Source: an uncultured Candidatus Saccharibacteria bacterium
GTDB lineage: Bacteria; Patescibacteriota; Doudnabacteria; UBA920
DNA length: 60,630 bases
Assembly (NCBI GenBank): GCA_964521955.1
Contig: CAZFTX010000006.1
Span: 1-60,630, forward strand
Direction: 5' to 3'
The position numbers and the translations under genes are program-made. The first letter of the stretch is position 1. Every line of letters begins with the position of its first letter. The notes beneath the pieces were generated by a model. That model was not told where the DNA came from. It was given only the letters and a program-made list of their open reading frames with translations, and did no database searches. This document shows, piece by piece, positions 7,623-28,152 of the stretch.

Positions 7623-8039
7623 ATGATTTCTTTTTTAAAAAAACTTTTTTCTTCAACTAAGACAGTAAAAACTTTTCCAAATATTTTCACGGCAAAAGTT
7701 ATAGCAGTTGAAAAACACCCTAACGCAGACCGGCTTAGGGTTATTCGTCTTTCTTTAGGGGACAGGGAAGTCTACCCTGTGGTTTGCGGTGCCTGGAACT
7801 TTAAGGAAGGAGACATGGTGGTTTTAGCATTGCCCGGAGCGGTTATTCCTCAAAACATTCATAGCGAAAAACACGAATCATTTACTCTTAGTACGGCAAA
7901 ATTACGTGGGGTTGAAAGCCAGGGTATGATCTGTGCAAAATTTGAACTGGGTTTAGGCCCTTTAGATGACAAACCCGAAATTATCGTTTTAAATAGTTCA
8001 GTGACCCCCGGCACAACCTTTTCGTCCGAAATGCTTTAA
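7623..8039 (+). CDS. stand-alone tRNA-binding (tRNA_bind OB-fold) domain protein, PheT-N/CsaA-like
   Basis: KHPNADRLRVIRLSLG ... VVCGAWNFKEGDMVVLALPGAV ... KLRGVESQGMICAKFELGL. Confidence 0.8.
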   Translation: MISFLKKLFSSTKTVKTFPNIFTAKVIAVEKHPNADRLRVIRLSLGDREVYPVVCGAWNFKEGDMVVLALPGAVIPQNIHSEKHESFTLSTAKLRGVESQGMICAKFELGLGPLDDKPEIIVLNSSVTPGTTFSSEML

Positions 8040-8175
8040 TAATTGACAAAAATACTTGTCGCTGTCACATAAATTAGAAGCTTAAGCCAAACCACTGACA
8101 AGAAAATCTACCAATATTTTACTTTAGCTTTAATTAAGCGTATTATTGAGGTGGGAGGAGAAAATTTTTAATATC

Positions 8176-11100
8176 ATGAAAACCAAAAAACGAAAACTTT
8201 TTGAGTCAGGAGAAACTTCTCAACCTATTGATTTCACAAAATTTTTTAATGCTTTTAAAAAATCAGCGTCAATTTTGCTGATTTTTTTGTTTATTTTAAC
8301 ACCCTTAACACCAGCATTTGCACAGGAAGCTATTTTAGACAATTTAACTACAAACCCGACTACAGAAGATAATACCCCTTTGCCTGGGGTAGCTCCTACC
8401 AATGAAATTCCTAGTTCCGATATTCCAACAGAACAGGACAGTATTTCCGAAACAATAGATTCCACTGCAGGCCCTAATCCAAATGTTGATACTGTCGTTG
8501 TGCCCCAAGCTTCTAACCCTGAAGATGTTAAAGAAATATTACCGGAAGAAACTGTTCCACTTGGTGAAGAGGCATCGCTTTCAGATGAAGAGGGGTTAGA
8601 AACAGAAGACCCTCCACAGGGATTAATGGACTCCGGAGAAGGCTATGACGGTCCGGTTGACCCTAAAGCAAATGAGGTTGGACAGCGCCTTGCTCGGACT
8701 GATGAACATACCGGAGCTTTGGTTACAAATGTACCGATTGTATTACCACCGGGAAGAAACGGGATGCAACCAAATTTAGCACTTTCCTATAACTCTCAAA
8801 ACCAGGAAGATGGTAGTCCATTTGGTTATGGTTGGACACTTAACATTCCGTACATTGAGAGAGTCAATAAAATGGGGACTGAAAAATTATACAGTACCAC
8901 TAGCCCGGTTTTTTTCAGTTCGTCTTTAGACGGAGAACTTGCCACCACAACTGCTACTACAACTTATATTTCCAGGGTAGATTATGGTGACATGCGTTCC
9001 TATACCTTTTCCAATAATCAATGGACTGTTGTGGATAAATCCGGAACACAATATAAATTTGGACATGCCAGTTCCACACAACAGACCAGCACTTCTTCCG
9101 CTACACAAATCTATAAATGGATGTTAGAGGAGGTGCGTGACAAAAACGACAATTTCATTAAGTACACTTATTACAAAGATAGCGGCCAAATTTACCCCGA
9201 CACTATTTATTATACCGGCACCAGTACTGTAAACGGTATATTTAAAGTCGAATTTTTGCGGGAGAGCAGGATTGACGCTTTCCCTTCTTTCAAAACAGGT
9301 TTTTCGGTAAAGTCTTTATATCGAATATACCAAATAAAAGTTTATGTTAATAATGATGTAGTTAGAAAGTACGATTTAACTTACACGGCAGGCAACAACA
9401 CTGTTCGGTCTTTGCTCAATGTAGTCCAAGAATCCGGCTATGTGGAAGGTTCAAGTACACCGCAATCTTTGCCTTCTACAACTTTTACCTACCAAACAAG
9501 TAACGAAGGATTTGCTACAGACGCAAGTCGCAGCTTTCCAAGTGATGCGAAGCTAAATTTTGAATGGGGTGATAAACTCGCAGACGTTAACGGAGATGGT
9601 TTAGTTGATTATATGTCAAGTTATACTCATAATGGACAACAAACATATCAGAAGGTATATTTGCAGAAACCCGACGGTACTTGGGCAACTTCAACAACTT
9701 ATACTATTCCTTTTGTTTTTTATTATACTACATGGCTTTCTTTTCATTACACATACCTTTTAATAGTAGACGTTAACGCTGATGGCAGGATTGACCTTGT
9801 CCACGAGGACGGAAGTGTTTACATTAATAACGGTTCAAACTGGGTTGAAGATGTAAATTGGAATACGCCAGTTTATCTTTCTGATCCTTATCCTCCTCAT
9901 ACTGACGACGTTAACGGCGATGGGTTGCCTGATCTTGTTGCCAAGAATAACTCCGCGGTGTTCTTAAACACCGGTACTACCTGGGAGAGCGCGACTTCCA
10001 CAGTCTTTTCTGCGCCTTCAACAACGGAATTTTTTACAGACATAAATAACGATACTCTTACAGACTCGCTAATTTTAACTAGTAGCCCCAGCATAGCTCT
10101 TAGTAATGGAATAGGGGTTTGGGTAAACACAACTTCTACCCCGACCAGTTCATTACCGGGTCTTACCATCCCTTTAGATATTGACGGAGACGGTATGGCC
10201 GATCTGTTTGAAAGCAGTGTGGATTCGGGGGTTGCCCATAGGGACGCTTATCAAGGCACAGGACAAAGTTGGAACCAAAAGACCAACTGGATTCAGACTG
10301 ATGTAAATTTAAGATATAATATTCAGCCAACTGTAGACCGAGCACTGGATTGGAATGGCGACGGGTTACCGGATTTTTCAGTTGGAGGCGCCGCAAGGAT
10401 AAACCAAAACAAAAAGGCGGATTTGCTAACAAAAATAGATTATCCCACTGGCGGTTTTTCCGCAATTACTTACAAACCTTCAACCCAATATTCTACAAGT
10501 AATGTTTTAGACAACCCCTCCTTACCTTTGATTGTTTATACTGCCCAAAAGATTGAGAGTAACGACGGTACTTCCACCAGCACCAGTGACACTTATGTTT
10601 ATAAAGGTGGTAATTATTATTTTAACAACCCTTGGGACAAAAAATTTGCAGGTTTTGAACAGATTGTAAAAACTGACGCTGCCGGCAACGTTACTAAAAC
10701 TTTTTTCCACACTGCCAGCAGTACTGATTCTAGTCATGGCGAATATTTAGACAACTTGTGGAAAATAGGCAAGCCATATAGAGTCGAAAAATACGACAAT
10801 AACAGCAATCTGGTAAAAAAGACTATAAACAAATGGGATGTTGCAACTTCAACTCAAGCCGCGGGGTTTGTTAAGCTTGCTCAATCAGTTGTTTTTGACT
10901 ATGGCTCTAGCACAACACCTAAAAGCATGGCAGAAACCTATACTTATGATAATTCTACTGGCAACCTGACACAAAAAGTTGAGTATGGAGAAGTAACCGG
11001 AAGCGATGACGGTACTTTTAGCGATACAGGCACTGACGATTTTACTACCACATATACTTACGCTACAAGTTCTACCACAACGGTTATGAGTTTGCTGGCC

Positions 11101-14100
11101 AGTGACTCAACCGTTGACCATAGCAGTAACAAAGCTAAAGAAAGTAGGTATTATTATGACAACCTGGCTTTACGCATTGTTAATCTTGGAAATTTAACCA
11201 AAAGAGAAGACTGGAAAGTTAGCAGTACATACATAGACACCGAAAAAACATATAATAGTTATGGATTGGTGGTTACGGAAAAAGATCCGAGAGATAAAAC
11301 TACTACATATTCATACGACACAAACAATTTATACCCAACAAGAGTTACAAATCCAGTAAGTCATGTAAGTACTTATTCTTACGATTATTCATCCGGGAAA
11401 GTTGCAACTTCTACGGATCCAAATGGCAATATTTTTGTAAATGTCTATGACGGTCTAGACAGAGTGTTAAAACAAAAACAACCAGACCCGGCCGCAACTT
11501 CAACTCTCTTAACAGCGACGGATTTCACTTATACAGATATTGCCAGAGCAATGAGTGTTAAGAAAAGTAATTACTTGGATTCAGCAACCACTACTGACTC
11601 TTATATTTATTTGGACGGTTTGGGCAGAAAAATACAGGAACGCAAAGAAGCCACTAGCACCTATTTTTCGGTTAAAGACTTTGTCTACAACAACCGTGGG
11701 CTACTGTTAAAAGAAACACTCCCATATTTTTCTAGCGGGAGCGGTACAACCACAGCTACTAGCACTACCGCTCTTTATACTACTTATGTGTATGATGCGT
11801 TGCAGAGGGTTACGGCAACTAACAACGCAATAAGTACAAGCACAAACTCTTACTCAAATTGGAAGACCACAACTACAGATTTACGGGGTAAGGTAAAGCA
11901 CTACTATAGGGACGCTTATAATAATTTAATAAAGGTTGAGGAAGAAAATTTTGCAGCATCATCTTCAACGCCGTCTGAGTTATATAGTAATTCTTTATAT
12001 AACGATGCAAACCTTGTTGCCTATTATCGTTTGGAGGATTCCGCTGACAGTAAAGGGAGTTACACTTTAAGTGCTAATGGTAGCCCTTCTTCAGTTTCGG
12101 CCAAATTTAACAACGGCTATTCCTACAGTGCTTCTCCATACCACAATACTGGTTCGAATTTGGGTATTATCGGTGGTGCTGTAACAATTAGTGGTTGGGT
12201 TAAGATAAATGCAAATCCCTCTTCTGGGTCAACGTGGTATTTAGCTTCCCAATTTAACAGCTCAGCGAAGGTTGGCTATGATTTCTGGTATGGAAATAGT
12301 GGCGGAACTTATACATTCTCGGTAAATCGCGGAAAATCAGGAGTGTCGGATAATCCGGTAAGCGTTGCAGGTGATTTAGGCACTTCTGTTTACCATCATG
12401 TTGTTTTAACCTATGACGGTACGTCTCTTAAGGGTTATTTAGATGGCAATTTATTTGGAACACTCAGTACCAGCGGTAACGGTTCTGGAGGGTCAGTTAA
12501 CGATTTTGTTATAGGGTGTGCTTATAACGGCACTTCCTGTGGAAATATTAGTTGGGATGATATGGCGGTATTCAGTCGCGCTTTAAGTGCTACAGAAGTC
12601 ACTAGTTTGTATTCTGCAGGGTATTCTACATATATTTATACCACTAACTATGCTTATAACTATTTGGGAAATCTTACAAATATAACGGACGCTTCCGGTA
12701 ATGTCCGTAATTTTACCTATGACGGTCTGGGAAGAAGGTTAACAGCGCAAGACCTTCATGCTACAGGTGATAGTACTTATGGTACTTACACATACACATA
12801 TGACGACGCAGGGAACCTGACCTCTAAAGTTGATGCAAAAAACCAAACGATAAATTACACCTATGACAATATTAACCGCCCCCTAACAGAAGATTATACT
12901 GGTCAGGCTGGAACTGAAATTACTAATACTTACGACACGTGTACGCAAGGCAGGGGCAGAATGTGTACCGCTTCTTCCTCGGCTGTAACCTTAACTAATA
13001 CATATAATGCTTTAGGACAACTTACACAAGAAGTAAAAGTAATAAGTGGTAACAGCTATACAAGTACCTACACCTATGACAGACAGGGTAATCAACTTAT
13101 TTTAACAAATCCTGACAATTCGCAAGTTAAGTATATTTATGACAGTGCGGGCATGGTAGACCGGGTACAAAGGAAAGAGTCAACCGACGGGAGCTATACA
13201 GATGTAGTTTCAAGTATTGACTACAATCCATTAGGCCAGGAAACTGTAATCACTTTTGTTAATGGAGCCATAACTACCAACACATATGACGACAGTAAGT
13301 TATACCGCTTAGTTCGTAAAGTTACAACCATCCCTCAAGCAGAAGGGTTAATGGGAGAAATACCAGACTTTTCTGAAATTATAGACGAATTACCAGCGCC
13401 TGAAACCTCCACAAGCACTCCTTCCTCAACTTCTACCGAAGATTCTCTTGCCTCCTCAAGTCCTCTTTCTTTAAACAGTGAATCTCCGGGATTTTTTGCT
13501 AGTCTTTGGCAAACTGTTACGAATGGATTTGACAGAGTCATAAGTAGAATCGTTAAAACAGGAAGTTATATCGCCAGTTTATTTACCGTCAAAACAGCTA
13601 TGGCGGCTGCTATTGAGCTGTATTCCACTGACTTATTCAACGACGCTAACCTGACAGCGTACTACAGAATGGAAAATACAAATGACAGTAAAAATAGTTA
13701 TCATCTTACAGCAGTTAGTAGCCCCTCTTCTGTTTCCGCCAAATTTAACAACGGCTATTCCTATGGCGGTTCGCCCTACCACCATACCAATTCAAACTTA
13801 GGGATTAACGGCGGAGCAGTGACTATTAGCGGTTGGGTTAAGATTAATGCAAATCCCTCTTCTGGTACTACATGGTATATAGCTTCGCAGTTTAACAGCA
13901 CTTCAGATGTTGAATATGACATTTGGTATGGTAACAGCGGGGGAACCTATACACTTTCAGTTAACCGAGGTAAGTCAGGAGTGTCAGACAATCCTGTGAG
14001 CGTTGCGGGTGATTTAGGCACTTCTGTTTACCATCATGTAGTTCTGACTTACGACGGCACTACCTTAACTGGGTACCTAGACGGTTCTTCCTTTGGAACC

Positions 14101-15780
14101 AGCGGAACAAGTGGAAACGGATCAGGTGGGTCGGTTAATGATTTTGTCATAGGCTGTGCTTACAACGGCACTTCTTGCGGAAACATAACATGGGATGATA
14201 TAGCAGTATTTAACAGAGCTCTTACTTCAGGTGAAGTGTCGGATTTGTATAACGGGGACACTCCTACTCCTACAACCGTAATTCAGGACTTAACTTATAC
14301 TTATGACAACAACGGCAACATTACTGAAATAGCTGATGATTCGGAAACACATACTTCTAAAACTACGAATTATACTTACGACGACTTAAACCGTTTGACC
14401 GCCGCTTCAACCACCCTAGCAAGTTTTGGTAGTAATTATAACCAGACCTATACTTACGACGCTATTGGGAATATTACCAGTAAATCTGACCAAGGAACCT
14501 ATACCTATGCAGGAAATGGTTATACAAACCCTCACGCAGTTACAAGTATAGGAACCGCCACCTCTACCTATGACAACAACGGCAACCTACTTGCTATTAA
14601 AACTAACAATGCTACCACTACCCTTTACACTTGGGACTATAACAACCTCCTTATCAGAGCTTCTTCTACAACTTCCGGCTTTAGGGCCACTTCAACCTAC
14701 GACTCTTTTGGTCAAAGAGCTAAGTATGTAACAGGTACTTCTTCTCAAACAACTACTTACTATCCAAGTAAGGGGTATAATATAACAGGGTCTACTCCTA
14801 CTAAACACATCTTCCTACCAAATGGAACCATGATAGCTACAATAGTAGGTACAGGAACATCTACAACTGTAAGTTACATACATACTGAGCATTTAGGTGG
14901 AACTAACGTGGTTACCAATTCAGCAGGAGATGCCGTAACTCAGCTATTGGATTATTATCCTTATGGTACAAGGAGATTGAACGAAGGTACGGATGTTTCC
15001 CAGCGTGAATTTACTGGACATGAGTATGATGAAACTGAAGATTTAGTTTATATGGGGGCAAGGTACTATAATGCAAACATTGGTAAATTTATAACCCAAG
15101 ATCCTGTTTTTTGGGATTTTGATTATTCTAGGCTGACTGATCCGCAGATTTTTAATAGCTACACATATGCAAGGAATAATCCAATAACTTATACTGACCC
15201 AGATGGTAGAGATGCAGTATTAAAATTTGATGAGAAAAATAAAACAATAATTATTAGTTCGACGATATACATTTATGGAGAAGGTGCTACTCAGGATGTT
15301 GCAAATAGAATGCAGAAAGATATTTCTGAAGTATGGGATACGGGGTGGACATATACAGACGAAAAGACTAATACAAAGTATTCAGTAAAATTTGAGGTAG
15401 AAGTTAGAGTGACAAAGCATTCTTGGACACATGGATATAGAAATGATTCGAATGTTATACAGGTGGGTGGAGTGGATCGTTCATATGTTGACGCAAAAAA
15501 AGCCAAAAAAGGGGCTTGGAGGGAAAATGAACCAGACCCAGCACCACATGAATTTGGACACTTGTTGGGTTTAGATGATAGATACTCCGATGAGGGCGGT
15601 TCAGATGAGGGATGGGAGGGTAACATAATGGCGGAGCCTGCCATGGAAGGAAAAGTAGAACAAAAAAATATTGATTCAATAATTAAACCATACGCAGAGA
15701 GCCATAATAATAGGTGGTTTCCGAAGTGGAATAAATCCACAACCCACCACGTTGCTCCTCGTAACGGTAATTTTAGATAA
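8176..15780 (+). CDS. giant SpvB/TcB-TcC-like RHS (YD-repeat) polymorphic toxin with C-terminal Zn-metallopeptidase payload
   Basis: Signal-like N-terminus (ILLIFLFILTPLTPAFA/QEA). SpvB-like LPPGRNGMQPNLALSYNSQ..FGYGW. Five DxNGDG FG-GAP/VCBS repeats (9580-10380). Many YD repeats (YTYDxxGN/R). RHS core end YTYARNNPITYTDPDG (DPDG = 15196-15207). HEFGHLLGLDDRY (HEFGH = 15547-15561). ATG 8176 preferred over the track TTG at 8146. Confidence 0.9.
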   Translation: MKTKKRKLFESGETSQPIDFTKFFNAFKKSASILLIFLFILTPLTPAFAQEAILDNLTTNPTTEDNTPLPGVAPTNEIPSSDIPTEQDSISETIDSTAGPNPNVDTVVVPQASNPEDVKEILPEETVPLGEEASLSDEEGLETEDPPQGLMDSGEGYDGPVDPKANEVGQRLARTDEHTGALVTNVPIVLPPGRNGMQPNLALSYNSQNQEDGSPFGYGWTLNIPYIERVNKMGTEKLYSTTSPVFFSSSLDGELATTTATTTYISRVDYGDMRSYTFSNNQWTVVDKSGTQYKFGHASSTQQTSTSSATQIYKWMLEEVRDKNDNFIKYTYYKDSGQIYPDTIYYTGTSTVNGIFKVEFLRESRIDAFPSFKTGFSVKSLYRIYQIKVYVNNDVVRKYDLTYTAGNNTVRSLLNVVQESGYVEGSSTPQSLPSTTFTYQTSNEGFATDASRSFPSDAKLNFEWGDKLADVNGDGLVDYMSSYTHNGQQTYQKVYLQKPDGTWATSTTYTIPFVFYYTTWLSFHYTYLLIVDVNADGRIDLVHEDGSVYINNGSNWVEDVNWNTPVYLSDPYPPHTDDVNGDGLPDLVAKNNSAVFLNTGTTWESATSTVFSAPSTTEFFTDINNDTLTDSLILTSSPSIALSNGIGVWVNTTSTPTSSLPGLTIPLDIDGDGMADLFESSVDSGVAHRDAYQGTGQSWNQKTNWIQTDVNLRYNIQPTVDRALDWNGDGLPDFSVGGAARINQNKKADLLTKIDYPTGGFSAITYKPSTQYSTSNVLDNPSLPLIVYTAQKIESNDGTSTSTSDTYVYKGGNYYFNNPWDKKFAGFEQIVKTDAAGNVTKTFFHTASSTDSSHGEYLDNLWKIGKPYRVEKYDNNSNLVKKTINKWDVATSTQAAGFVKLAQSVVFDYGSSTTPKSMAETYTYDNSTGNLTQKVEYGEVTGSDDGTFSDTGTDDFTTTYTYATSSTTTVMSLLASDSTVDHSSNKAKESRYYYDNLALRIVNLGNLTKREDWKVSSTYIDTEKTYNSYGLVVTEKDPRDKTTTYSYDTNNLYPTRVTNPVSHVSTYSYDYSSGKVATSTDPNGNIFVNVYDGLDRVLKQKQPDPAATSTLLTATDFTYTDIARAMSVKKSNYLDSATTTDSYIYLDGLGRKIQERKEATSTYFSVKDFVYNNRGLLLKETLPYFSSGSGTTTATSTTALYTTYVYDALQRVTATNNAISTSTNSYSNWKTTTTDLRGKVKHYYRDAYNNLIKVEEENFAASSSTPSELYSNSLYNDANLVAYYRLEDSADSKGSYTLSANGSPSSVSAKFNNGYSYSASPYHNTGSNLGIIGGAVTISGWVKINANPSSGSTWYLASQFNSSAKVGYDFWYGNSGGTYTFSVNRGKSGVSDNPVSVAGDLGTSVYHHVVLTYDGTSLKGYLDGNLFGTLSTSGNGSGGSVNDFVIGCAYNGTSCGNISWDDMAVFSRALSATEVTSLYSAGYSTYIYTTNYAYNYLGNLTNITDASGNVRNFTYDGLGRRLTAQDLHATGDSTYGTYTYTYDDAGNLTSKVDAKNQTINYTYDNINRPLTEDYTGQAGTEITNTYDTCTQGRGRMCTASSSAVTLTNTYNALGQLTQEVKVISGNSYTSTYTYDRQGNQLILTNPDNSQVKYIYDSAGMVDRVQRKESTDGSYTDVVSSIDYNPLGQETVITFVNGAITTNTYDDSKLYRLVRKVTTIPQAEGLMGEIPDFSEIIDELPAPETSTSTPSSTSTEDSLASSSPLSLNSESPGFFASLWQTVTNGFDRVISRIVKTGSYIASLFTVKTAMAAAIELYSTDLFNDANLTAYYRMENTNDSKNSYHLTAVSSPSSVSAKFNNGYSYGGSPYHHTNSNLGINGGAVTISGWVKINANPSSGTTWYIASQFNSTSDVEYDIWYGNSGGTYTLSVNRGKSGVSDNPVSVAGDLGTSVYHHVVLTYDGTTLTGYLDGSSFGTSGTSGNGSGGSVNDFVIGCAYNGTSCGNITWDDIAVFNRALTSGEVSDLYNGDTPTPTTVIQDLTYTYDNNGNITEIADDSETHTSKTTNYTYDDLNRLTAASTTLASFGSNYNQTYTYDAIGNITSKSDQGTYTYAGNGYTNPHAVTSIGTATSTYDNNGNLLAIKTNNATTTLYTWDYNNLLIRASSTTSGFRATSTYDSFGQRAKYVTGTSSQTTTYYPSKGYNITGSTPTKHIFLPNGTMIATIVGTGTSTTVSYIHTEHLGGTNVVTNSAGDAVTQLLDYYPYGTRRLNEGTDVSQREFTGHEYDETEDLVYMGARYYNANIGKFITQDPVFWDFDYSRLTDPQIFNSYTYARNNPITYTDPDGRDAVLKFDEKNKTIIISSTIYIYGEGATQDVANRMQKDISEVWDTGWTYTDEKTNTKYSVKFEVEVRVTKHSWTHGYRNDSNVIQVGGVDRSYVDAKKAKKGAWRENEPDPAPHEFGHLLGLDDRYSDEGGSDEGWEGNIMAEPAMEGKVEQKNIDSIIKPYAESHNNRWFPKWNKSTTHHVAPRNGNFR
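11977..12612 (+). repeat. intragenic LamG/ConA-like unit 1 (636 nt)
   Basis: ELYSNSLYNDANLVAYYRLED...GWVKINANPSSG...VYHHVVLTYDG...NDFVIGCAYNGTSCGNISWDDMAVFSRAL. Same length as 13615-14250 and identical to it at most positions. Confidence 0.8.
13615..14250 (+). repeat. intragenic LamG/ConA-like unit 2 (636 nt)
   Basis: ELYSTDLFNDANLTAYYRMEN...GWVKINANPSSG...VYHHVVLTYDG...NDFVIGCAYNGTSCGNITWDDIAVFNRAL. Confidence 0.8.
14686..14897 (+). repeat. 212-bp handle inside the main rhs gene, identical to 16859-17070
   Basis: CCACTTCAACCTACGACTCTTTTGGTCAAAGAGC ... CATACTGAGCATTTAGG read identically at both sites; divergence starts right after. Confidence 0.9.
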
Positions 15781-15781
15781 A

Positions 15782-16204
15782 ATGCTTATGAAAAAAAATA
15801 CAAGTTTAATACTAATAGTAATAATTATTATAGGAGCAATTATTTTTATAGTATTTTATAAAAATAAGGCCTCGGAACCTATGATTGACAAGTCTCAAAA
15901 CGGCAAAGAAACACAAACTTATCAAGGGTATCTTATAAGAAACCCCGAAGCTATGTATTTTGTATATAATTACCCGCTGGAAGACAATAAAGATTCTGAG
16001 AAGTTTTGGGTTAAAGATCAAAATAACAAAGAAGTGATGAGTTGGGAAAAAAGTTTAGTCTGGAAACCTATTAGTCCAAATAGCAAATCAGAATTTGTTA
16101 AAGTTACCATAGTAGGCAAGTCTCACGGGCCTGGTGTGTATGGCGGAGTTCCCGGGTATAAGTTTGAGATCGAAGTTCATAATGTAAATCAAATTTTTGA
16201 ATAG
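15782..16204 (+). CDS. small N-terminally membrane-anchored protein; candidate immunity protein for the metallopeptidase payload
   Basis: ATG 2 nt after the rhs stop. MLMKKNTSLILIVIIIIGAIIFIVF anchor then a ~110-aa soluble domain. Position immediately 3' of a polymorphic toxin. Confidence 0.55.
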   Translation: MLMKKNTSLILIVIIIIGAIIFIVFYKNKASEPMIDKSQNGKETQTYQGYLIRNPEAMYFVYNYPLEDNKDSEKFWVKDQNNKEVMSWEKSLVWKPISPNSKSEFVKVTIVGKSHGPGVYGGVPGYKFEIEVHNVNQIFE

Positions 16205-16207
16205 GTC

Positions 16208-16828
16208 ATGGACGACAATGTAAAGTTAATAGATTATTTCCGTGCCAACATTTTTGAAGCGGAAAGTTCGTATAATGCTTGGAAGATGATATATTATGCT
16301 AGATGTACGCCTATCGTTGGGCAGAAATTAGCAGTACAATACACAAAAATTCAAAACTACCATAACCCTTTCTTTACTATTGCGGAACGTTCTCTTTTAA
16401 TTGCTTGGGTTTTGTTAAGCTGCCATGCATTTGATAAAGATAATCGCTCATGCTCTCTTTCAAAAGTTGATCCAGAATTATGTTCAAAATTTCTTGAAGA
16501 TGCAGAAAATAACAATATCATGGAGCAGTTAAAAACCACACGGGATAAACTTTTTGCACATAAGGAAAGTGGAATAGATCCAAAGTCAATTACTTTACCG
16601 AGCGTTGAAAGAATGGACGCATTTTTTACACGCTTAAAGATCTTGTATAATGAATTAAGCAAATTGGTTGATAGGTCTTTTACCGCTTTTGATTTTACGG
16701 ATGACGTCAAGCAAAGTATGGAGCATTTGTACATGAACTTAGAACGGGGAGAAACCATGCGCTTAAAAGAAATTGATATAGAATGGATGTGGAAAAAAGA
16801 CGATAGTAGAGCTTTAAAAAAAGTTTAG
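16208..16828 (+). CDS. cytoplasmic helical protein with HEPN-like Rx5H motif (AbiU2-like?)
   Basis: 206 aa with no TM segment. ...LKTTRDKLFAHKES... fits the HEPN Rx4-6H motif. The family call comes from pattern memory only. Confidence 0.5.
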   Translation: MDDNVKLIDYFRANIFEAESSYNAWKMIYYARCTPIVGQKLAVQYTKIQNYHNPFFTIAERSLLIAWVLLSCHAFDKDNRSCSLSKVDPELCSKFLEDAENNNIMEQLKTTRDKLFAHKESGIDPKSITLPSVERMDAFFTRLKILYNELSKLVDRSFTAFDFTDDVKQSMEHLYMNLERGETMRLKEIDIEWMWKKDDSRALKKV

Positions 16829-16852
16829 AATAAATAACTAGCCACAGGAGGA

Positions 16853-17944
16853 ATGAAAACCACTTCAACCTACGACTCTTTTGGTCAAAGAGCTAAGTAT
16901 GTAACAGGTACTTCTTCTCAAACAACTACTTACTATCCAAGTAAGGGGTATAATATAACAGGGTCTACTCCTACTAAACACATCTTCCTACCAAATGGAA
17001 CCATGATAGCTACAATAGTAGGTACAGGAACATCTACAACTGTAAGTTACATACATACTGAGCATTTAGGGGGTATAGGAGTTGCCACAAATGACTCTGC
17101 GGAAGTAGCCCAACTTGTAGATACCTACCCTTATGGTACTTTAAGACTAGACGAGCAGTCTGGGTTAAGTGAACAAAGGAAGGGTATAAGTGGGCATGAG
17201 TATGATACTGACACAGGACTAACATATGCTAATGCAAGGTATTATAATGGTGGTAGTGGGAGGTTTGTTAGTCAGGATCCGATGTTTTGGGAAACACCGG
17301 AAGAATATATTGAAGACCCTCAACAGTGGAATAGTTATAGCTATGCTAGGAATAATCCCTTGAATTTTGTTGATCTTCTGGGTATGTTTATTATTGAGAC
17401 TGGCAAGGTTGAGTTAAGTGATTCTTGGGATAGTATAACCACAGCCATAAATCAAGCTTACGGAGTCAATTATTCCATTGATACTGTAAAAAGCTTAAAT
17501 AATAATCCTAGCTGGATTTATGAAGGCCAGACTTTAGTTCCAAATAATAAAGTTCCCGATATCACTAATAAACTGAATTCAATAATGATTGAGCACTCCA
17601 GTGATATCCGTATTAACAACCCTTGGTGGTTCCGTGATGCAGTTAAAAAAGGAGGTGTATGGGATTTAAAAAATACCGAAGAATTTAATTCCGATAAGTA
17701 CCTAGATGGTTTTGTCTACAGCGGAAACAGAATAAGATATGATGCCCCTGGTAATATTCATTACGGGTTCGTAGGGTCAGGAGCTTTCTGGTCTTGGTCT
17801 AAACTTCTACTGAAAGAAGCCGGTAAGGCGCAGATTGCTGAAGGAAAGAGTAAAACTGAATGGAAGAAAGACTACTACGGAGATGATCCAACTGACCAGT
17901 ATTTCATAAAATTAGGTATTAGTTTATTCTACAAATTATGGTAA
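16853..17944 (+). CDS. orphan RHS C-terminal cassette: RHS core end + LysM-like segment + polymorphic-toxin type-44-like domain
   Basis: The first ~70 aa are identical to main RHS residues encoded at 14686-14897. Own core end YSYARNNPLNFVDLLG. SDSWDSITTAINQAYGVNYSIDTVKSLNNNPSWIYEGQTLVP (LysM-like). KKGGVWDLKN...APGNIHYGFVGSGAF...LLKEAGKAQ (type-44-like). Confidence 0.8.
   Translation: MKTTSTYDSFGQRAKYVTGTSSQTTTYYPSKGYNITGSTPTKHIFLPNGTMIATIVGTGTSTTVSYIHTEHLGGIGVATNDSAEVAQLVDTYPYGTLRLDEQSGLSEQRKGISGHEYDTDTGLTYANARYYNGGSGRFVSQDPMFWETPEEYIEDPQQWNSYSYARNNPLNFVDLLGMFIIETGKVELSDSWDSITTAINQAYGVNYSIDTVKSLNNNPSWIYEGQTLVPNNKVPDITNKLNSIMIEHSSDIRINNPWWFRDAVKKGGVWDLKNTEEFNSDKYLDGFVYSGNRIRYDAPGNIHYGFVGSGAFWSWSKLLLKEAGKAQIAEGKSKTEWKKDYYGDDPTDQYFIKLGISLFYKLW
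16859..17070 (+). repeat. 212-bp handle in the orphan cassette (copy 2)
   Basis: See 14686-14897. Confidence 0.9.
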
Positions 17945-17957
17945 AGCAGTGTTAAAT

Positions 17958-18383
17958 ATGAATAATAAGAAAAAAATAGCTCTGATTATAATTTTAGTAT
18001 TATTAGCTTACGGCTACTATTATTTTACATATGAATTTAATTTATTAGGTGAGTGTGGTAAGTATGATGTAAATAAAGCACAATCTTCTAATCAAAAATT
18101 TGAGTTAGAGTATTACATTCTTAATTGCGGTGCTACATCAGACTACGCAACCCAAATGAAATTAAAAGATTTAACATTAAATACTGAAGAAATAGTTGTT
18201 AATATTAGAGGAAATTTTATTAGTAATGAAAACGTAGAGTCAGTAATAGTTGAGTGGTTAAATCCAAACCAAGTTAACATAACTTACAATGGACAAGAGG
18301 ACAGAATTTATAAATACCAGAATCAATATAAGGATATATCGATTCACTTAATTAATAATGGGTCTGTTGTAATGCCCAGATAA
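17958..18383 (+). CDS. small membrane-anchored protein; candidate immunity protein for the orphan toxin
   Basis: ATG 17958 (the track uses GTG 17949). KKKIALIIILVLLAYGYYYF anchor. Lies immediately 3' of the orphan toxin. Confidence 0.55.
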   Translation: MNNKKKIALIIILVLLAYGYYYFTYEFNLLGECGKYDVNKAQSSNQKFELEYYILNCGATSDYATQMKLKDLTLNTEEIVVNIRGNFISNENVESVIVEWLNPNQVNITYNGQEDRIYKYQNQYKDISIHLINNGSVVMPR

Positions 18384-18621
18384 ATTGACTTCTGACCACA
18401 CCTTTTTTAATATAATGGGTAATTGAAAAAGTTATATCTTTTCTTATTAAAATTATGTAATGATTTGATATTCTTAAGAACTGAAAAAGATGTCAGATAC
18501 AATTATTGATATTAAAAATAATTAGTTGGGTTTTTAAATATAGTTTCTTCCTCACCTTTCTCTTTCCACAAATTTGACCGTATGTTATATTTAACATTAC
18601 TTAAACCGAATACATAAAAAC

Positions 18622-19761
18622 ATGAGTGAAATTGTTATTGATAATTCTGAAGAAATTCGTTTAAAAAAAGAGTTAGAAAAAAGGACCGACTTTGAAGCTT
18701 TAAGGATAAAGCGGTATTTAAGCATGCCTGACCTCTCAAGAAAAGAGGGGAGCCCGCTTCACCAAATGGTAAAAAACATTTTAAGTATTCCAGACTTTCA
18801 AGCTTTAGACGACATAAAAATTCCTGAAATTGTTCCAGCAGATATTAGTTTTGACTTGTTTGACTTTCCTAAAGACCACCCGGCCAGAAGCAAGTCCGAC
18901 ACTTACTATATTGATGAAAAAAACATTTTGCGCACCCACACAACAGTTATGTGGTACTATTTTTTAAATGACATCGCTGTAAAAGAAAAAATTAAAAACA
19001 ACCAAGCAGTGGGAAGTTTGTGCTACGGTAAAGTATATAGAAAAGACGAAATTGACAGGCATCACATGAATGTTTTTCACCAAATAGACGGCTGGTACCT
19101 CTCCCCAAAAGACCAAAAAATTATTGGTCAAAAAGACTTGGAAAATGTTTTGTCCAATATTGCAAAGGCAGTCTTTGGTCCAGAAATTAATTACAGATTC
19201 AACAAAGACACTTTCCCATATACGGACCCTTCCTTAGAAATGGAAATAGAAATAAACGACAAATGGGTAGAAGTTTTAGGCAGCGGAGTAGTCAAAGGAA
19301 GTGTTTTAGACAAATTAGGGGTAGACTCTTCTAAATATACAGGCTGGGCTTTTGGTTTTGGTTTAGAAAGACTAGCTATAGTTAGCATGCAACTGCCTGA
19401 CATTCGCCTGCTATGGAGCGAAGACGAAAGAGTAATTAAACAACTAAAATTAGGGCAAAAGTTTGTGGAAGTAAGCAAGTTCCCTCCAATTACTAGAGAT
19501 ATTTCTTTTATAGTTGAAAATACTTTTGTACCGAACAATTATTTTGACCTTATACGTGAAATTGGTGGGGACTTAGTTGAACAAGTTGAACTTTTAGACA
19601 AGTACGAAAATGAAGCAAAATTTGGTAAAAACAAAGTAAGTTACACCTACAGAGTTGTGTACCGAAGTCCTGAAAGGACCTTAAAATCCGAAGAGGTAGA
19701 CCCCTTGCAAAACAAGCTTTATGAACAAACAAAAACTGTTTATAACGCTGAACTTCGTTAG
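18622..19761 (+). CDS. pheS: phenylalanine--tRNA ligase, monomeric mitochondrial-type (PheS catalytic core fused to FDX-ACB domain)
   Basis: Class II motifs (FPYTDPSLEMEI, GWAFGFGLERLAI, PDIRLLWSEDERVIKQL). C-terminal SKFPPITRDISF...FDLIREIGGDLVEQVELLDKYE...YTYRVVYRSPERTL is an FDX-ACB domain (19474-19758). Confidence 0.88.
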   Translation: MSEIVIDNSEEIRLKKELEKRTDFEALRIKRYLSMPDLSRKEGSPLHQMVKNILSIPDFQALDDIKIPEIVPADISFDLFDFPKDHPARSKSDTYYIDEKNILRTHTTVMWYYFLNDIAVKEKIKNNQAVGSLCYGKVYRKDEIDRHHMNVFHQIDGWYLSPKDQKIIGQKDLENVLSNIAKAVFGPEINYRFNKDTFPYTDPSLEMEIEINDKWVEVLGSGVVKGSVLDKLGVDSSKYTGWAFGFGLERLAIVSMQLPDIRLLWSEDERVIKQLKLGQKFVEVSKFPPITRDISFIVENTFVPNNYFDLIREIGGDLVEQVELLDKYENEAKFGKNKVSYTYRVVYRSPERTLKSEEVDPLQNKLYEQTKTVYNAELR

Positions 19762-19835
19762 GGCCATTTTAACTCTTAAATAAGAGCGAAATTACTAGAA
19801 TTTTCTATGGTGTTTTTGTGTGTTTTATGCTATAA

Positions 19836-21971
<2,136 letters not shown>

Positions 21972-22135
21972 ATCACTTGGAGGGACCAACCTATGACCAC
22001 CCCTAAAATTCTTCGAATTTTGGGGAACCCCGATTTAGGTTTTTCCCTTCCAAACCCTCGCTTACGCTCGGCCTCCCTTTTCCATACTGTGTCCTGCGGC
22101 CAGGAATGAATCCTGAGCCTCCAGACAGCTATTAA
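21972..22135 (+). repeat. GC-rich structured intergenic element, copy R2
   Basis: Starts right after the gyrB stop with ATCACTTGGAGGGACCAACC. Same long hairpin (CCCCTAAAATTC-TTC-GAATTTTGGGG), box CTCGCTTACGCTCGGCCTCCCTTTTC, hairpin CAGGA-ATGAA-TCCTG (22101-22115) and tail AGCTATTAATTGAC. Confidence 0.8.
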
Positions 22136-22193
22136 TTGACTTAGCGGCTTAAATGTTCTAGACTATCACAGTATTTAAACACTAATTTATCTC

Positions 22194-22655
22194 ATGTCAA
22201 AAAAATATCTACTCACCAAGGAAGGTTTAATTAAACTTAACGAAGAACTTAAGTTTTTAATTAACGACAAGCGCAAAGAAGTCATTGAAAGAATCCGCGA
22301 AGCCGCAGCACACGGCGACTTAAGTGAAAACGCCGACTATGCCCAAGCTCGTGAAGAACAGAGTTTTATTGAAGGCCGTATTCAAGAAATTGAAGATGTT
22401 ATTAAAAACGCTGAGATTATTACTACCAGCAACCACGGCTCAACTGTAAACATTGGCAGCACTGTACATATTAAAGCCAACGGACAAGACAAAAAATACA
22501 CCATTGTCGGCTCCAACGAAGCTAACCCAAAAGAAGGCAAGATTTCTAACGAATCTTTAGTTGGAAGAGCTTTACTTGGAAAGAAAGTGGCAGAAAAGTT
22601 TAAAGTGACTACACCAGCAGGGGAAATGGATTACGAAATCGTTTCCATGGAATAA
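22194..22655 (+). CDS. greA: transcription elongation factor GreA
   Basis: 153 aa. LT.EG...L..EL..L....R.EV...I..A...GDLSENADY..A+EEQ.FIEGRI and a C-terminal FKBP-like part. Confidence 0.9.
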   Translation: MSKKYLLTKEGLIKLNEELKFLINDKRKEVIERIREAAAHGDLSENADYAQAREEQSFIEGRIQEIEDVIKNAEIITTSNHGSTVNIGSTVHIKANGQDKKYTIVGSNEANPKEGKISNESLVGRALLGKKVAEKFKVTTPAGEMDYEIVSME

Positions 22656-22672
22656 CAAATTTGTGAACATTA

Positions 22673-22702
22673 ACAGCCTTTTGCCTAAAAGGGCTGTTTT
22701 TT
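22673..22702 (+). terminator. intrinsic terminator after greA
   Basis: ACAGCCTTTT-GCCT-AAAAGGGCTGT followed by TTTTTT. It overlaps the extended -10 TGTTATAAT (22702-22710) of the lysS transcript. Confidence 0.8.
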
Positions 22703-22802
22703 GTTATAATAATACTAACTTAACAATAACAATTATTAAAACTATAGCAGGACAAAATTTAAATTTTGTTATTGTTATGGTCATAGTTATATTTACACCT
22801 CC

Positions 22803-24707
22803 ATGTCCGAACGCTTAGAAGACATTATTGCGGGTAGAAAAAATAAGTTAGAGGCAATTAAGCAGTCTGGCCTTTCTGCCTACCCTTCGGTTACCGAAAG
22901 AACCCACACAAACTCCGAAATTTTAGAGAATTTTGATTCCCTAACTTCTGCTGAAGTTACTGCAGTAGGAAGAGTTAGAAGCTTTAGAGACATGGGCAAG
23001 TTGGCTTTTATTCACATAGAAGACGGAACTGCCAAAATTCAAGCTTTGTTTAAAAAGGACGAAGTCGGAGAGAGTGAGTTTAATTTTTTAATTAAAAACA
23101 TAGATATTGGCGACTTCCTACAAGTTACCGGTGCGCTTTTTAAAACAAAAACCGAAGAAAAAACTATCCAGGTAAAAAAATTCAAGTTATTGGCTAAAAG
23201 CTTGTTACCTCTACCCAGCGAACATTTTGGACTACAAGACGAAGAAGCAAAGCTCAGAAAAAGATATTTAGACATACTCTTAGACCCAAACACCAAAGAA
23301 CTCTTTGTGAAAAAAGCTCGTTTTTGGAATTCCATGCGCAACTTTTTAGAAAGCAAAGGTTTTTTACACATGGACATGCCCATACTTGAGTCGGTTCCAG
23401 GTGGCGCTGAAGCCAGGCCGTTTGTAACCCACCACAACGCTTTAGACAAAGACTTTTTCCTGCGCATTTCTTTGGAATTACCTTTAAAGAAAATGTTAGT
23501 TGCGGGTTTTGAAAAAGTTTTTGAAATAGGCAGAATTTTTAGAAACGAAGGCATCTCCACAGAACATTTACAAGACTACACCCAAATGGAATTTTACTGG
23601 GCCTATGCAAGTTTTGACGACATGATGAACTTAGTTCGTGAAATGTATCAAAAAGTAATAATGGATACATTTGGCACTTTGGAAATCAAAAATGGTGACA
23701 TTACTGTTGATTGGTCCGGAAATTGGGAAAAAATAAGTTATATCGAAATTTTTAAAAAATATACAAGCATTGACCTTCTGTCAGCTAGTGACGATGAACT
23801 AAAAAAATACTGTAATCAAAATAGTATAAAACACGAACCTTACGCCGGTCGAGGTAGGCTTATTGACCTCATTTTCAAAAAAGTAAGAGGAAATATCCCT
23901 ACTCAAAAACCTGTGTTTTTAGTTGACCAACCGGTAGAGTTAGAACCTTTAGCCAAGCGTGACCCAAATAATCCTAAACTCGTTCAAAGAATGCAAATTT
24001 TGGCCTATGGCACAGAGCTGGGGAAAGGTTTTGGCGAGTTAAACGATCCTTTAGACCAACGCTCCCGTTTTGAAGAACAGTCAAGCTTAAGAGAAAAAGG
24101 GGATGAAGAAGCTCAAATGTTAGACGAGTCTTATGTAGAAGCCATGGAATACGGTATGCCCCCCGCAGCTGGTTTTGGACTTTCAGAAAGACTTTTTGCT
24201 ATTTTGGCCGACAAGTCAGTCAGAGAAACCGTTGTGTTCCCACCCATGAAAGAAAGTGGCTCAGTTGAACAAAAACGCAAAGAAAACCTTATGGCCGTAG
24301 CAATCATAAACAAAGCAGCCGGCATGGAGGCGTGGAAAGAACTTAACACAATGGCGCACTTAAATGCTGCCTTTGGTGCTAGACAAACAAAAAAAGGTAG
24401 AGATCTTTTTTACCAAAACGAAATTCATTCTAAAGACGGGCATGGCATAAATCTAAATATCCAGCATGCCATTATGGTTAAGACTTCAGACTCAAACGAA
24501 GAACTAAAGCATCTTGCCACCGAAGGAAAAGCAAGGGGATTAGAAGTAGCAGAATTTACTAAAGAAATGATAGAGTCCACGAGCGATAAAAAAGTTATTG
24601 AGTGGACTTCTGGTAAGAACTACTCAGAAATAGAACATTACGGCGTTTTAATTTTTGGAAAAGAATCAGTGGTAAAAGAGCTTACAGATAAATATCAACT
24701 CTACTAA
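22803..24707 (+). CDS. lysS: lysine--tRNA ligase (class II) with ~140-aa C-terminal DUF2000/PTH2-like extension
   Basis: OB-fold N-domain and class II core (FVTHHNALD, FEIGRIFRNEG, GMPPAAGFGLSERL). Extension MAVAIINKAAGMEAWKELNTMAHLNAAFG...YGVLIFGKESVVKELT (24291-24704). Confidence 0.92.
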   Translation: MSERLEDIIAGRKNKLEAIKQSGLSAYPSVTERTHTNSEILENFDSLTSAEVTAVGRVRSFRDMGKLAFIHIEDGTAKIQALFKKDEVGESEFNFLIKNIDIGDFLQVTGALFKTKTEEKTIQVKKFKLLAKSLLPLPSEHFGLQDEEAKLRKRYLDILLDPNTKELFVKKARFWNSMRNFLESKGFLHMDMPILESVPGGAEARPFVTHHNALDKDFFLRISLELPLKKMLVAGFEKVFEIGRIFRNEGISTEHLQDYTQMEFYWAYASFDDMMNLVREMYQKVIMDTFGTLEIKNGDITVDWSGNWEKISYIEIFKKYTSIDLLSASDDELKKYCNQNSIKHEPYAGRGRLIDLIFKKVRGNIPTQKPVFLVDQPVELEPLAKRDPNNPKLVQRMQILAYGTELGKGFGELNDPLDQRSRFEEQSSLREKGDEEAQMLDESYVEAMEYGMPPAAGFGLSERLFAILADKSVRETVVFPPMKESGSVEQKRKENLMAVAIINKAAGMEAWKELNTMAHLNAAFGARQTKKGRDLFYQNEIHSKDGHGINLNIQHAIMVKTSDSNEELKHLATEGKARGLEVAEFTKEMIESTSDKKVIEWTSGKNYSEIEHYGVLIFGKESVVKELTDKYQLY

Positions 24708-24745
24708 CTATACACTTAGCACTACTCACTAATAACTCAACTTCC

Positions 24746-26095
24746 ATGTTAGATATAAAATTCGTTCGTGAAAACGTAGACAAAATCAAAGAAGCGGTAA
24801 AAAACAAAAGAATCGACTTAAATGTGGAAGAGCTTTTAGACTTGGACATAAAAAGAAGAGACTTAATTACTGAATTTGAAAGTTTACAAGCCACCAAAAA
24901 TGCAGTCTCCAAAGAAATTTCCAAACTTTCTGAAACAGAAAAGAAAGCCAAGTTTTTAGAAATGAAAGAAGTGGACGAAAAAGCCAGTGAATTAAAAACT
25001 AAACTCAAAGACATTGAGTCCCAGTACGAACTGCTTCTATATTTAGTTCCAAACATTCCAAGTCCAGAAACCCCAATTGGTCCAGACGAATCCGCAAACG
25101 TACCTTGGAGTTACTGGTCTCCAAGCATTGGTCACGTGGACCCAAAAGAAAACGACAAAGTTTCCCAGGTACCAACTAGGTTTGAATTTGAACCTTTAGA
25201 CCATGCCACTCTAGGTAAAAACTTAAACCTTATTGATACCGAAGCTGGAACCAAAACTTCTGGCTTTAGAGGTTACTACCTAAAAAACGAAGCCGTGCTC
25301 ATGCAATACGGGCTTATTTGGCATGCCCTAAAGAAAATGCAAGCTAAAGGTTTTGAGCTCATGATTCCGCCAGTTTTAGACAGAGAATTTGCTTTCTACG
25401 GTAGCGGACATTTTCCTTTTGGCAAAAGCGACCAATACCAAGTTTTAACAGAAGACCAAATGGGTAAAGGTATTACTGACCCAGTCTACTTAGCTGGTAC
25501 TTCCGAACCAAGCCTTTTAGCTTATTTTGCGGACAAAACTTTAGAAGAAAAAGACTTACCAATAAAAGTTTGTGGGGTCTCCAGCTGTTTTAGAGGTGAA
25601 ATTGGTAGCTATGGCAAAGACACTAAAGGCATCTACCGCGTACATGAATTTATGAAAGTTGAACAAGTTGTGCTTTGCAAAGCTGACATTTTAGAAGGGG
25701 ACAAATGGCTAGAAGCTTTAAGAGAAATAGCTGAAGAAATGCTGCAGGAACTTAAACTGCCATACCGTGTTTTAAACATTTGCACCGGAGACATGGGAGC
25801 GGGTAAATATAAAATGTATGACATTGAAACCTGGATGCCGGCTAGAAAAGCTTTTGGTGAAACCCATTCTGACTCAAACCTAACCGACTGGCAAGCAAGA
25901 AGACTAAACATTAAATACAAAGCTGCTGACGGTAAAACCAAACATGTATTTACCTTAAATAATACGGTCATTGCCAGCCCTAGAATTCTAATTGCAATTT
26001 TAGAAAACTACCAACAAAAAGACGGCTCTGTACTAGTTCCTGATATATTAAAACCTTTGGTTGGAAAAGATGTTATTAAAGCGAGTGGAAAATAA
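24746..26095 (+). CDS. serS: serine--tRNA ligase
   Basis: N-terminal coiled coil, GFRGYYLKNE, YLAGTSEPSL, CFRGEIGSYGKDTKGIYRVHEF, TLNNTVIASPRILIAILENYQ. Confidence 0.95.
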   Translation: MLDIKFVRENVDKIKEAVKNKRIDLNVEELLDLDIKRRDLITEFESLQATKNAVSKEISKLSETEKKAKFLEMKEVDEKASELKTKLKDIESQYELLLYLVPNIPSPETPIGPDESANVPWSYWSPSIGHVDPKENDKVSQVPTRFEFEPLDHATLGKNLNLIDTEAGTKTSGFRGYYLKNEAVLMQYGLIWHALKKMQAKGFELMIPPVLDREFAFYGSGHFPFGKSDQYQVLTEDQMGKGITDPVYLAGTSEPSLLAYFADKTLEEKDLPIKVCGVSSCFRGEIGSYGKDTKGIYRVHEFMKVEQVVLCKADILEGDKWLEALREIAEEMLQELKLPYRVLNICTGDMGAGKYKMYDIETWMPARKAFGETHSDSNLTDWQARRLNIKYKAADGKTKHVFTLNNTVIASPRILIAILENYQQKDGSVLVPDILKPLVGKDVIKASGK

Positions 26096-26116
26096 AAACC
26101 AACAACCTCATCCTAA

Positions 26117-26138
26117 CCTTCTCCTCGCCAGGAGAAGG
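26117..26138 (+). terminator. hairpin after serS (no U-tract)
   Basis: CCTTCTCC-TCGCCA-GGAGAAGG. Confidence 0.4.
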
Positions 26139-26161
26139 AATCTATAAGGAATAAATTTATA

Positions 26162-27100: not shown

Positions 27101-27106
27101 TATTAT

Positions 27107-27781: not shown

Positions 27782-27789
27782 GTATTAAA

Positions 27790-27852: not shown

Positions 27853-27878
27853 GGATTTTTTCGGTAGTCTTGCGGACT

Positions 27879-27965: not shown

Positions 27966-27967
27966 GT

Positions 27968-28151: not shown

Positions 28152-28152
28152 T

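Follow-up and report, generated by a model that had tools for sequence, protein, structure and literature searches.

A 211-bp exact repeat and a strain-variable toxin cassette in the rhs locus of a Doudnabacteria-like bacterium

Why should a toxin tip that has no delivery part of its own open with a stretch of DNA identical, letter for letter, to a piece of the full-length rhs gene lying upstream of it? The question arises in a stretch of 60,630 nucleotides (contig CAZFTX010000006.1), analysed over its full length and called the window below. It carries a main rhs gene with a predicted Sec-type signal and a zinc-metallopeptidase-like toxin at its end (the zincin tip), followed by an orphan open reading frame (ORF) that ends in an Ntox44 toxin. 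The shared piece, hereafter the handle, is very probably the crossover site of a reversible tip exchange between this full-length gene and the orphan tip. Public metagenomes contain genomes with an identical main gene that lack the 2173-bp unit set off by the handle, and their junction falls exactly at the handle.

The shared handle

A sequence-only reading of this locus had made out an rhs gene of full length, downstream of it a module of tip and immunity gene that has no delivery part, and a core fragment common to both, and this anatomy holds. It had put the common stretch at 212 bp (14686-14897 and 16859-17070). The identity was borne out, but a direct-repeat search with base-by-base extension gives 211 bp, positions 14687-14897 being the same as 16860-17070, with G at 14686 facing A at 16859. 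The two copies, spaced 2173 bp, are the only long repeat pair that the search turned up. Their left edge is abrupt: the 60 nt that precede them match, ungapped, at 18 positions, as unrelated flanks do. On the right, a single mismatch (14898/17071) is followed by core ends that are 55% identical in nucleotides and 47% in amino acids over 316 nt; as had been claimed, the copies part company just past HTEHLGG into different core ends and different toxins, zincin on one side and Ntox44 on the other.

The handle is by far the longest exact direct repeat of the 60.6-kb window, the runners-up measuring 34, 26 and 21 bp, so that chance is excluded. Conservation of the protein under selection cannot explain the identity either, since synonymous sites are identical too and since, in the closest related locus (L001), paralogues of this segment reach just 62-78% identity. 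Judged from the letters, what accounts for it is either a very recent common origin or ongoing homogenisation. A C/T polymorphism within the handle (14795/16968) is relevant here. The window and the metagenome runs X1, X2 and X5 have C; X3 and X4 have T. As each strain displays a single handle contig, with C or T, both copies must co-vary within a strain, and the sharing of one allele by both copies in each two-tip strain type points to possible exchange between copies, or to repeated formation of the arrangement.

Two arrangements in public metagenomes

The evidence from public metagenomes consists throughout of Logan assembled contigs (k=31). In X1, X2, X3 and X5 the handle forms a separate 211-nt contig, which four flanking contigs overlap by 30 nt, giving four junctions: main gene to handle, handle to zincin tip, the region downstream of a HEPN-like gene to handle, and handle to Ntox44 tip. 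The third of these, the HEPN-side junction, is present in X1, X2, X3, X5, X6 and X13, which come from four studies. Handle depth is about twice that of its surroundings in X1 (17.2 against 6-10) and in X5 (8.6 against 4-6), and 1.3 times in X2. In each well-covered run the depth of the cassette equals that of the chromosome (8.9-10.1 against 8.6-8.9; 20.8 against 21-23; 5.5 against 4-6). The two-tip arrangement is real in several independent metagenomes.

A second arrangement is found in the study P5 (X7, X8, X9 and X11). Depth is zero over 14898-16859 in all four runs, and the main gene is covered about fivefold over 8099-14793 with 0-1 differences. One contig of 536 nt from X9 runs from 14573-14686 into 16860-17281, skipping 2173 bp, its 211 nt of handle being common to both positions. 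This is the recombined junction that the sequence-only reading had proposed to look for. Its further claim, that a crossover at the handle would replace the metallopeptidase with the type-44-like toxin, stands for the geometry, and the expected product is seen in X9; the joined form may yet be the ancestral one, which later received the metallopeptidase cassette, and not a product of deletion. The X9 contig differs from the window inside the handle by a C>T change at 16968. Farther on, P5 has a second breakpoint at 17281, just past ..VSQDP, where the sequence continues either as a third, unrelated tip that begins AVMSSPERFL... (GCAGTTATGTCTAGTCCTGAAAGATTTTTG...) or as a window-like Ntox44 tip; in X7 and X8 the latter path has lost one nucleotide at 17443 and meets a stop at aa 198, before the toxin domain.

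Two other runs extend the series. In X12, an aquatic metagenome from a sixth study, a contig joins 8114 to 14622 and so skips 6507 bp, by which the main rhs gene has lost its start and almost everything else; the handle then leads into the Ntox44 tip, the DUF5412 gene and pheS, without cassette. This is a remnant-only strain, and the remnant looks as if kept for its putative immunity gene. Words specific to the cassette are confined to the two-tip runs and to runs of low coverage, with none in P5 or X12. Occupied and unoccupied forms with their junction at the shared fragment are therefore both on hand, in the shape of the X9 joint, the four cassette-free runs and the X12 remnant. In X22, from groundwater, the zincin tip and the gene next to it are about 96% identical to those of the window, behind a different handle (...PDGTLVATV...), and similarity to the window starts only at 14847. 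The same tip being present on different cores, it must be mobile between rhs cores.

Some candidates did not survive scrutiny. X4 might have passed for a mixture of forms; its depths (9.5, 18, 8.4, 13.8, 10.3) proved inconsistent in depth modelling. A contig of X10 that goes from main gene through handle into 15 nt of the Ntox44 tip was discounted as a joined form, because at about fourfold depth missing junction words can mimic one. A long orphan in P5 with its left edge at 13718 or 14565 was also rejected, the loose ends being internal repeats of the main gene (12050, 14268). That gene holds a 300-nt repeat at 73% (11976-12275 against 13614-13913) and shorter ones at the level of YD repeats (12050/13718 and 14268/14565); contigs are broken there in consequence, and junctions are mimicked in read-laying output.

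Tips, cassette and the direction of exchange

Table 1. Features of the rhs locus (positions in the window).
Feature	Positions	Strand	Remarks
Whole rhs locus, accessory island	8043..18648	+	between tRNA_bind gene (7623-8039) and pheS (18622-19761)
Main rhs gene	8146..15780	+	2544 aa from TTG 8146, first ATG 8176; from ORF list and translation
Handle copy 1	14687..14897	+	211 bp within main gene, aa 2181-2251, ATSTYD...HTEHLG
Unit present or absent between strains	14687..16859	+	2173 bp: one handle, zincin tip, two genes, remnant
Core end of main tip (Rhs_assc_core)	14898..15213	+	terminates ...NNPITYTDPDGRD at 15196-15213
C-terminal toxin of main gene, putative metzincin-like zincin	15214..15780	+	HEFGHLLGLDD from 15547, Met-turn NIM
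Candidate zincin immunity protein	15782..16204	+	140 aa, N-terminal membrane helix; by position only
HEPN_AbiU2-like protein, cassette cargo	16208..16828	+	206 aa; Pfam PF18734 E=4.4e-6
Probable remnant of another rhs allele (..A T G G M K)	16841..16859	+	19 nt abutting handle copy 2 on its left
Orphan ORF	16853..17944	+	363 aa: handle, own Rhs_assc_core, Ntox44; no signal peptide, no shell
Handle copy 2	16860..17070	+	identical to 14687-14897
Candidate Ntox44 immunity protein, DUF5412	17958..18383	+	141 aa, N-terminal membrane helix; by position only

The translation of the main gene (Table 1) begins with a hydrophobic, signal-peptide-like stretch (...ILLIFLFILTPLTPAFAQEA), after which come SpvB, FG-GAP and Laminin_G_3 domains, RHS/YD repeats, the core end and the toxin. 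Pfam matches back this order for SpvB (2.6e-13), FG-GAP_3 (2.5e-11) and Laminin_G_3 (1.2e-29); the RHS/YD shell is recognised in four stretches by RHS_repeat (PF05593, E=4.2e-24) and by TIGR01643 too, and the core domain before the toxin by Rhs_assc_core (TIGR03696, E=1.7e-18). At the core motif, where PxxxxDPxGL is expected, the protein reads NNPITYTDPDGR, with R in place of L at the last position. The toxin itself occupies the C-terminal 189 aa, which bear HEFGHLLGLDD...NIM. To have called it a metallopeptidase, as the sequence-only reading did, is warranted by the invariant HExxHxxGxxD...M pattern and by a metzincin-like predicted fold, but not by a Pfam match above threshold: Reprolysin_4, at E=7e-4 and 19.7 bits, stays under its cut-off of 22. 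H113, E114, H117, G120, D123 and M140 are invariant in 33 sequences of the family, as an HExxHxxGxx(H/D) site with a Met-turn would have them. Most of the 39 homologues are short 'RHS repeat-associated' proteins, and one is named as from Flavobacterium; none has a toxin-domain Pfam match, and three match PF20041 (DUF6443) only, so that no curated family was found to receive the tip. An AlphaFold model (AF2) with a predicted local distance difference test score (pLDDT) of 85.5 has fragilysin, matrix metalloproteinases and TACE as its top Foldseek matches (probability about 1, TM 0.39-0.45). We call the main tip, on this predicted structure, a putative metzincin-like zincin outside any curated or named family.

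The orphan has the form of a dissociated tip: an ORF of 363 aa, downstream and in the same orientation, without a delivery part, that opens with the shared core fragment, its handle beginning 7 nt past the ATG. Its Rhs_assc_core spans aa 92-178 (TIGR03696, E=2.5e-17), and its toxin matches Ntox44 (PF15607) over aa 259-359 (nt 17627-17929; E=3.9e-13), at 50.1 bits against a gathering cut-off of 24 and over 102 of the 104 model positions. Sequence matches in the PDB are the ends of the Tse15, Tse5 and YenC2 shells, and an exact-protein look-up had nothing on record. The core motif is degenerate (NNPLNFVDLLGM at 17369-17386), the self-cleavage site being VDLLGM where homologous Ntox44 tips have IDPTGL or IDPLGL. 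Such decay may reflect relaxed selection on a tip that is not delivered, and the orphan, as it stands, presumably is not. Each copy having its own Rhs_assc_core, which starts about 19 aa past the end of the handle, each tip brings its own module for closing the shell; the swapped unit would thus carry shell closure and self-cleavage along with the toxin.

The small genes downstream of each tip are presumably immunity genes. For the product of 17958-18383 the Pfam match to DUF5412 has E=3.5e-8; DUF5412 as a conserved partner of Ntox44 found no support, three other Ntox44 orphans preceding unrelated small genes. The 140-aa protein after the zincin had no family match in Pfam/TIGR profile searches, and its gene accompanies the zincin tip in X22. 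Inside the cassette, between this putative immunity gene and the orphan, lies the HEPN_AbiU2-like gene, whose score is borderline (26.7 bits against a cut-off of 26.8) and which is a possible second immunity or defence gene.

The last 19 nt of the cassette deserve attention of their own. Here the window reads GCC ACA GGA GGA ATG AAA ACC ACT TCA ACC (A T G G M K T T S T), a diverged rhs contig of X5 reads GGC ACT GGT GGT ATG AAA GCT ACT AGT ACT (GTGGMKATST) at the equivalent place, and the main gene has SGFRA. The string AGGAGG, which ends 1 nt before the ATG at 16853, is too near to be a ribosome-binding (Shine-Dalgarno) site. An AGGAGG-ATG designed as a start was rejected on both grounds, the match to codons of the diverged X5 gene and the short spacing; most likely, to go by the codons, it is what is left of Gly-Gly-Met-Lys in another rhs allele. 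With this remnant on its left and a diverged core end on its right, the identity tract is embedded in rhs-derived sequence, and its left edge is a recombination junction.

How would the exchange proceed? The recombination mechanism is one that we infer: the handle would act as the crossover site of a reversible, RecA-type, Campbell-like reaction. The unit, made of a handle, a core end, the metzincin-like toxin, the 140-aa membrane protein, the HEPN-like gene and the 19-nt rhs remnant, would insert into a single-tip gene (main-handle-Ntox44), place the zincin tip on the delivery shell and push the Ntox44 tip with its DUF5412 gene downstream. Recombination of handle with handle would remove it again, as a deletion or as a circle, and re-attach Ntox44. 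Insertion and deletion are two senses of one reaction, and the data agree with the published model for each (Jackson et al., 2009; Koskiniemi et al., 2014). As to the sense that produced the window, we favour insertion with displacement of Ntox44, because Ntox44 and DUF5412 are the most downstream genes, next to pheS, in all forms, because the zincin tip is demonstrably mobile, as X22 attests, and because the deletion route needs two independent deletions. It is a tentative extension, and a rather doubtful one, that the 2173-bp unit is a self-contained mobile cassette, which travels from strain to strain as a circle that does not replicate and inserts at any site where the 211-bp handle is present.

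Several facts weigh against the exchange as we see it. The X9 contig differs from the orphan at six listed sites (about 3%) within 17071-17281, five of them synonymous, and it cannot therefore be a fresh deletion product of the window's own genome. The two continuations after 17281 leave the arrangement in P5 ambiguous, between two strains and a main gene with an orphan. Among the contigs, which are all the evidence there is, no molecule spans both handle copies, nor does any sample demonstrably hold both forms. In X3 the handle contig has a depth of 1x (21.3), even with all four of its flanking contigs (20.8-23) attached to it, which may stem from the way the depth of contigs is recorded. That last figure would suit an assembly artefact, whether two strains were fused into a chimera, a repeat was collapsed or duplicated, or a free circle of 2.2 kb was wrongly threaded into the chromosome, and so would the fact that a 211-bp repeat is beyond phasing by a de Bruijn graph. 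The graph would formally fit a main-handle-Ntox44 chromosome together with a circle of handle and cassette, and the X3 cassette contig, overlapping the handle at both ends, fits circle and tandem alike. An artefact is nevertheless hardly credible: the HEPN-side junction recurs in six runs, the cassette matches the chromosome in depth in every well-covered run and has no replication gene, and a chimera, a collapse or a free circle at an exact 1:1 ratio in all samples is very unlikely. The sequence-only reading would have fallen with such an artefact; all four junction contigs exist in at least four independent studies, and that alternative fails. A different doubt concerns the silence of the orphan, which might be translated from the ATG at 16853 as an intracellular toxin kept in check by DUF5412, much like a toxin-antitoxin (TA) module. 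There is an in-frame ATG at the start of the fragment with the purine-rich AGGAGG ahead of it, the sole predicted terminator-like site between main gene and orphan is at 15750-15766, and a precedent for an orphan that is not silent comes from Salmonella, whose orphan is reported to act as a TA-like module (PMC7043789). This is quite improbable here, given an AGGAGG 1 nt from the ATG that spells the Gly-Gly-Met-Lys codons of another rhs allele, and the degenerate cleavage motif.

The remaining alternatives concern history rather than reality. The two-tip form may be ancestral, and the P5 and X12 forms derived from it by crossover at the handle, the delivered toxin switching from zincin to Ntox44. 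The handle is exactly where the X9 junction falls, RecA has a good substrate in a perfect direct repeat of 211 bp, an experimental case with a shared stretch of 522 bp at 95% sets a precedent (PMC3967940), and the GGMK remnant gives the left end of the orphan a history apart from that of the main gene. We hold this to be rather unlikely all the same: at least two independent events would be required, in P5 and in the more diverged X12; the Ntox44 path of P5 is broken at aa 198 by its 1-nt deletion, and the third tip follows the same core end; the zincin tip is known to move; and Ntox44 is the most downstream and oldest-looking tip in every form. Alternatively, the orphan could come from a GGMK-type rhs allele with a diverged handle, of which a 211-bp tract was later overwritten by main-gene sequence. 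Such a gene-conversion patch would agree with a tract that has rhs coding sequence, homologous yet diverged, to its left and right (the TGGMK remnant and the 47%-identical core end), and the same C or T allele in both handle copies of each strain suggests concerted evolution. Still, the left remnant amounts to about 6 codons only, conversion would be inefficient between copies about 70-80% alike, and insertion of a circle by a single crossover accounts for the same boundaries; the patch is unlikely. Insertion of the unit at the handle thus remains the reading that we favour.

The island and known systems of toxin-tip exchange

At 88% identity, the window's GyrB matches proteins named Candidatus Doudnabacteria; other top matches are from Patescibacteria. 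The host, a Doudnabacteria-like Patescibacterium, is an organism with a tiny genome, presumably episymbiotic, that has no type VI secretion system (T6SS), and our literature search brought up almost nothing on the dynamics of Rhs toxins in such organisms. The rhs locus as a whole is an accessory island. In a collinear relative with a GyrB 96% identical (L165), 36 nt (4688-4723) stand in place of window positions 8043-18648, and the tRNA_bind gene and pheS are 9 nt apart; in another collinear one (L166) they directly adjoin, the island being absent; a strain without the island occurs in the P5 runs too, at 13-16x, where 8051 is followed by about 30 nt and then by 18596. The 10.6-kb locus is therefore strain-variable as a whole. 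No target-site duplication was seen at the island ends, which have no direct repeat or shared word of at least 11 nt.

A scan of GTDB representatives and JGI contigs with the core-plus-handle peptide gave a best relative at 56% identity and no alternative tips at this handle. In the closest rhs relative (L001, the same as L085; 56% in amino acids) three orphans accompany a main gene and an immunity gene; the orphans all start near ...ATTTYTYAT and have mosaic breakpoints at HTDHLGG and QDP; in L167 a main Rhs gene is followed by an Ntox44 orphan and more orphans. Arrays of this kind are thus common in the group, and QDP, the site of the 17281 breakpoint in P5 as well, is a second recurrent breakpoint. 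The perfect identity of the handle, special to the present locus, indicates a recent event. Several Patescibacteria proteins of 390-610 aa (P0011, P0014, P0042, P0049) combine a signal peptide of their own with no more than the last 170 aa or so of the YD shell, a core domain and a toxin; such 'mini-Rhs' proteins may do without a full shell for secretion.

Beyond the locus, other features of the window were recorded. A contig of X3 (L162), compared over 17041-28682, is 99.4% identical to the window over 17041-21972 (Ntox44 tip, pheS, gyrB) and only 83-90% from 22191 on; this would reflect either a recent transfer of the rhs island and its flank from one diverged genome to another or a chimeric contig. 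The class II aminoacyl-tRNA synthetase ORF (tRNA-synt_2) at 22803-24707 codes for 634 aa, against 485 aa in L162, L165 and L166; positions 24254-24731, for which L165 has no counterpart, extend the C-terminus in frame by about 150 aa. At 5295-5365 and 21980-22050, after the gene of a 1001-aa helicase-nuclease and after gyrB, stands an intergenic element some 80 bp long. It contains an exact core of 34 bp and the hairpin CCCCTAAAATTC-TTCG-GAATTTTGGGG, and is probably a shared terminator or a small repeat element.

How does the locus compare with systems already known? In its general features the main protein resembles the WapA-type toxins of Bacillus subtilis, Sec-dependent YD/Rhs proteins of monoderm-type cells, with a signal peptide, a polymorphic C-terminal toxin, a downstream immunity gene and no T6SS: here too an Rhs/YD protein, with a signal-like N-terminus, ends in a polymorphic toxin tip, and the next gene is a candidate for immunity. 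To our knowledge, WapA does not have the SpvB/FG-GAP/LamG N-terminal modules of the present gene.

The architecture itself is known, orphan tips with a core fragment common to the main rhs gene being familiar from Enterobacteria. In Salmonella enterica Typhimurium LT2, the orphan tip was shown to become fused to rhs-main through recombination within 522 bp of 95% identity (Koskiniemi et al., 2014; PMC3967940). The rhs-main/rhs-CT-orphan pair of that strain is laid out as here, an rhs gene of full length, then an orphan tip plus immunity gene with a common core stretch, and recombination in this stretch attaches the orphan tip and removes the main tip with its immunity gene (PMC3967940). By contrast with the 522 bp at 95%, and with recombinants seen experimentally after duplication, the present case offers 211 bp at 100% and a presence/absence polymorphism between metagenomes; delivery, T6SS-linked in LT2, here would rely on a Sec-type signal with SpvB/FG-GAP modules, in a Doudnabacteria-like genome of the Candidate Phyla Radiation (CPR) (PMC3967940). 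The cdiA-CT/cdiI orphans of contact-dependent inhibition (CDI) are likewise tandem modules of toxin tip and immunity gene behind a delivery gene, each opening with a conserved, recombinable upstream piece (Poole et al., 2011; PMC3150448); CdiA, however, is a two-partner-secretion filament with a VENN boundary, whereas here there is a YD shell and the swapped unit, which starts upstream of the Rhs_assc_core, includes this closing domain (PMC3150448).

The closest parallel is with the displacement of rhs tips in enterobacteria. In the proposal of Jackson et al. (2009; PMC2935791), core fragments recombine with each other and so free a circle that comprises a core fragment, the tip and the genes in between; this circle may integrate at the core of another strain's gene and shunt the old tip downstream. 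They also found attached and dissociated core fragments to be identical within one locus. Identical core fragments, the same tip on different cores and relatives with arrays of dissociated tips are common to both cases, which differ in lineage and in type of delivery (PMC2935791). Occupied and unoccupied sites, inferred there from comparisons, are both seen here in near-identical genomes; the circle is unobserved in both (PMC2935791). Near-identical genomes that have or lack the cassette are present in public metagenomes, as are a strain reduced to the remnant, one without the island, and the tip on a foreign core; natural populations, and not just distant comparisons, could therefore serve to test the displacement or activation model. 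If the cassette does travel as a circle, the window and the P5 and X12 forms would be the first natural 'after' and 'before' states of the circular-intermediate model of Jackson et al., in an ultra-small CPR genome whose 10.6-kb rhs island varies as a whole between strains. We judge the locus to be a new case, from the CPR lineage, of textbook toxin-tip exchange, with an unusually informative population polymorphism.

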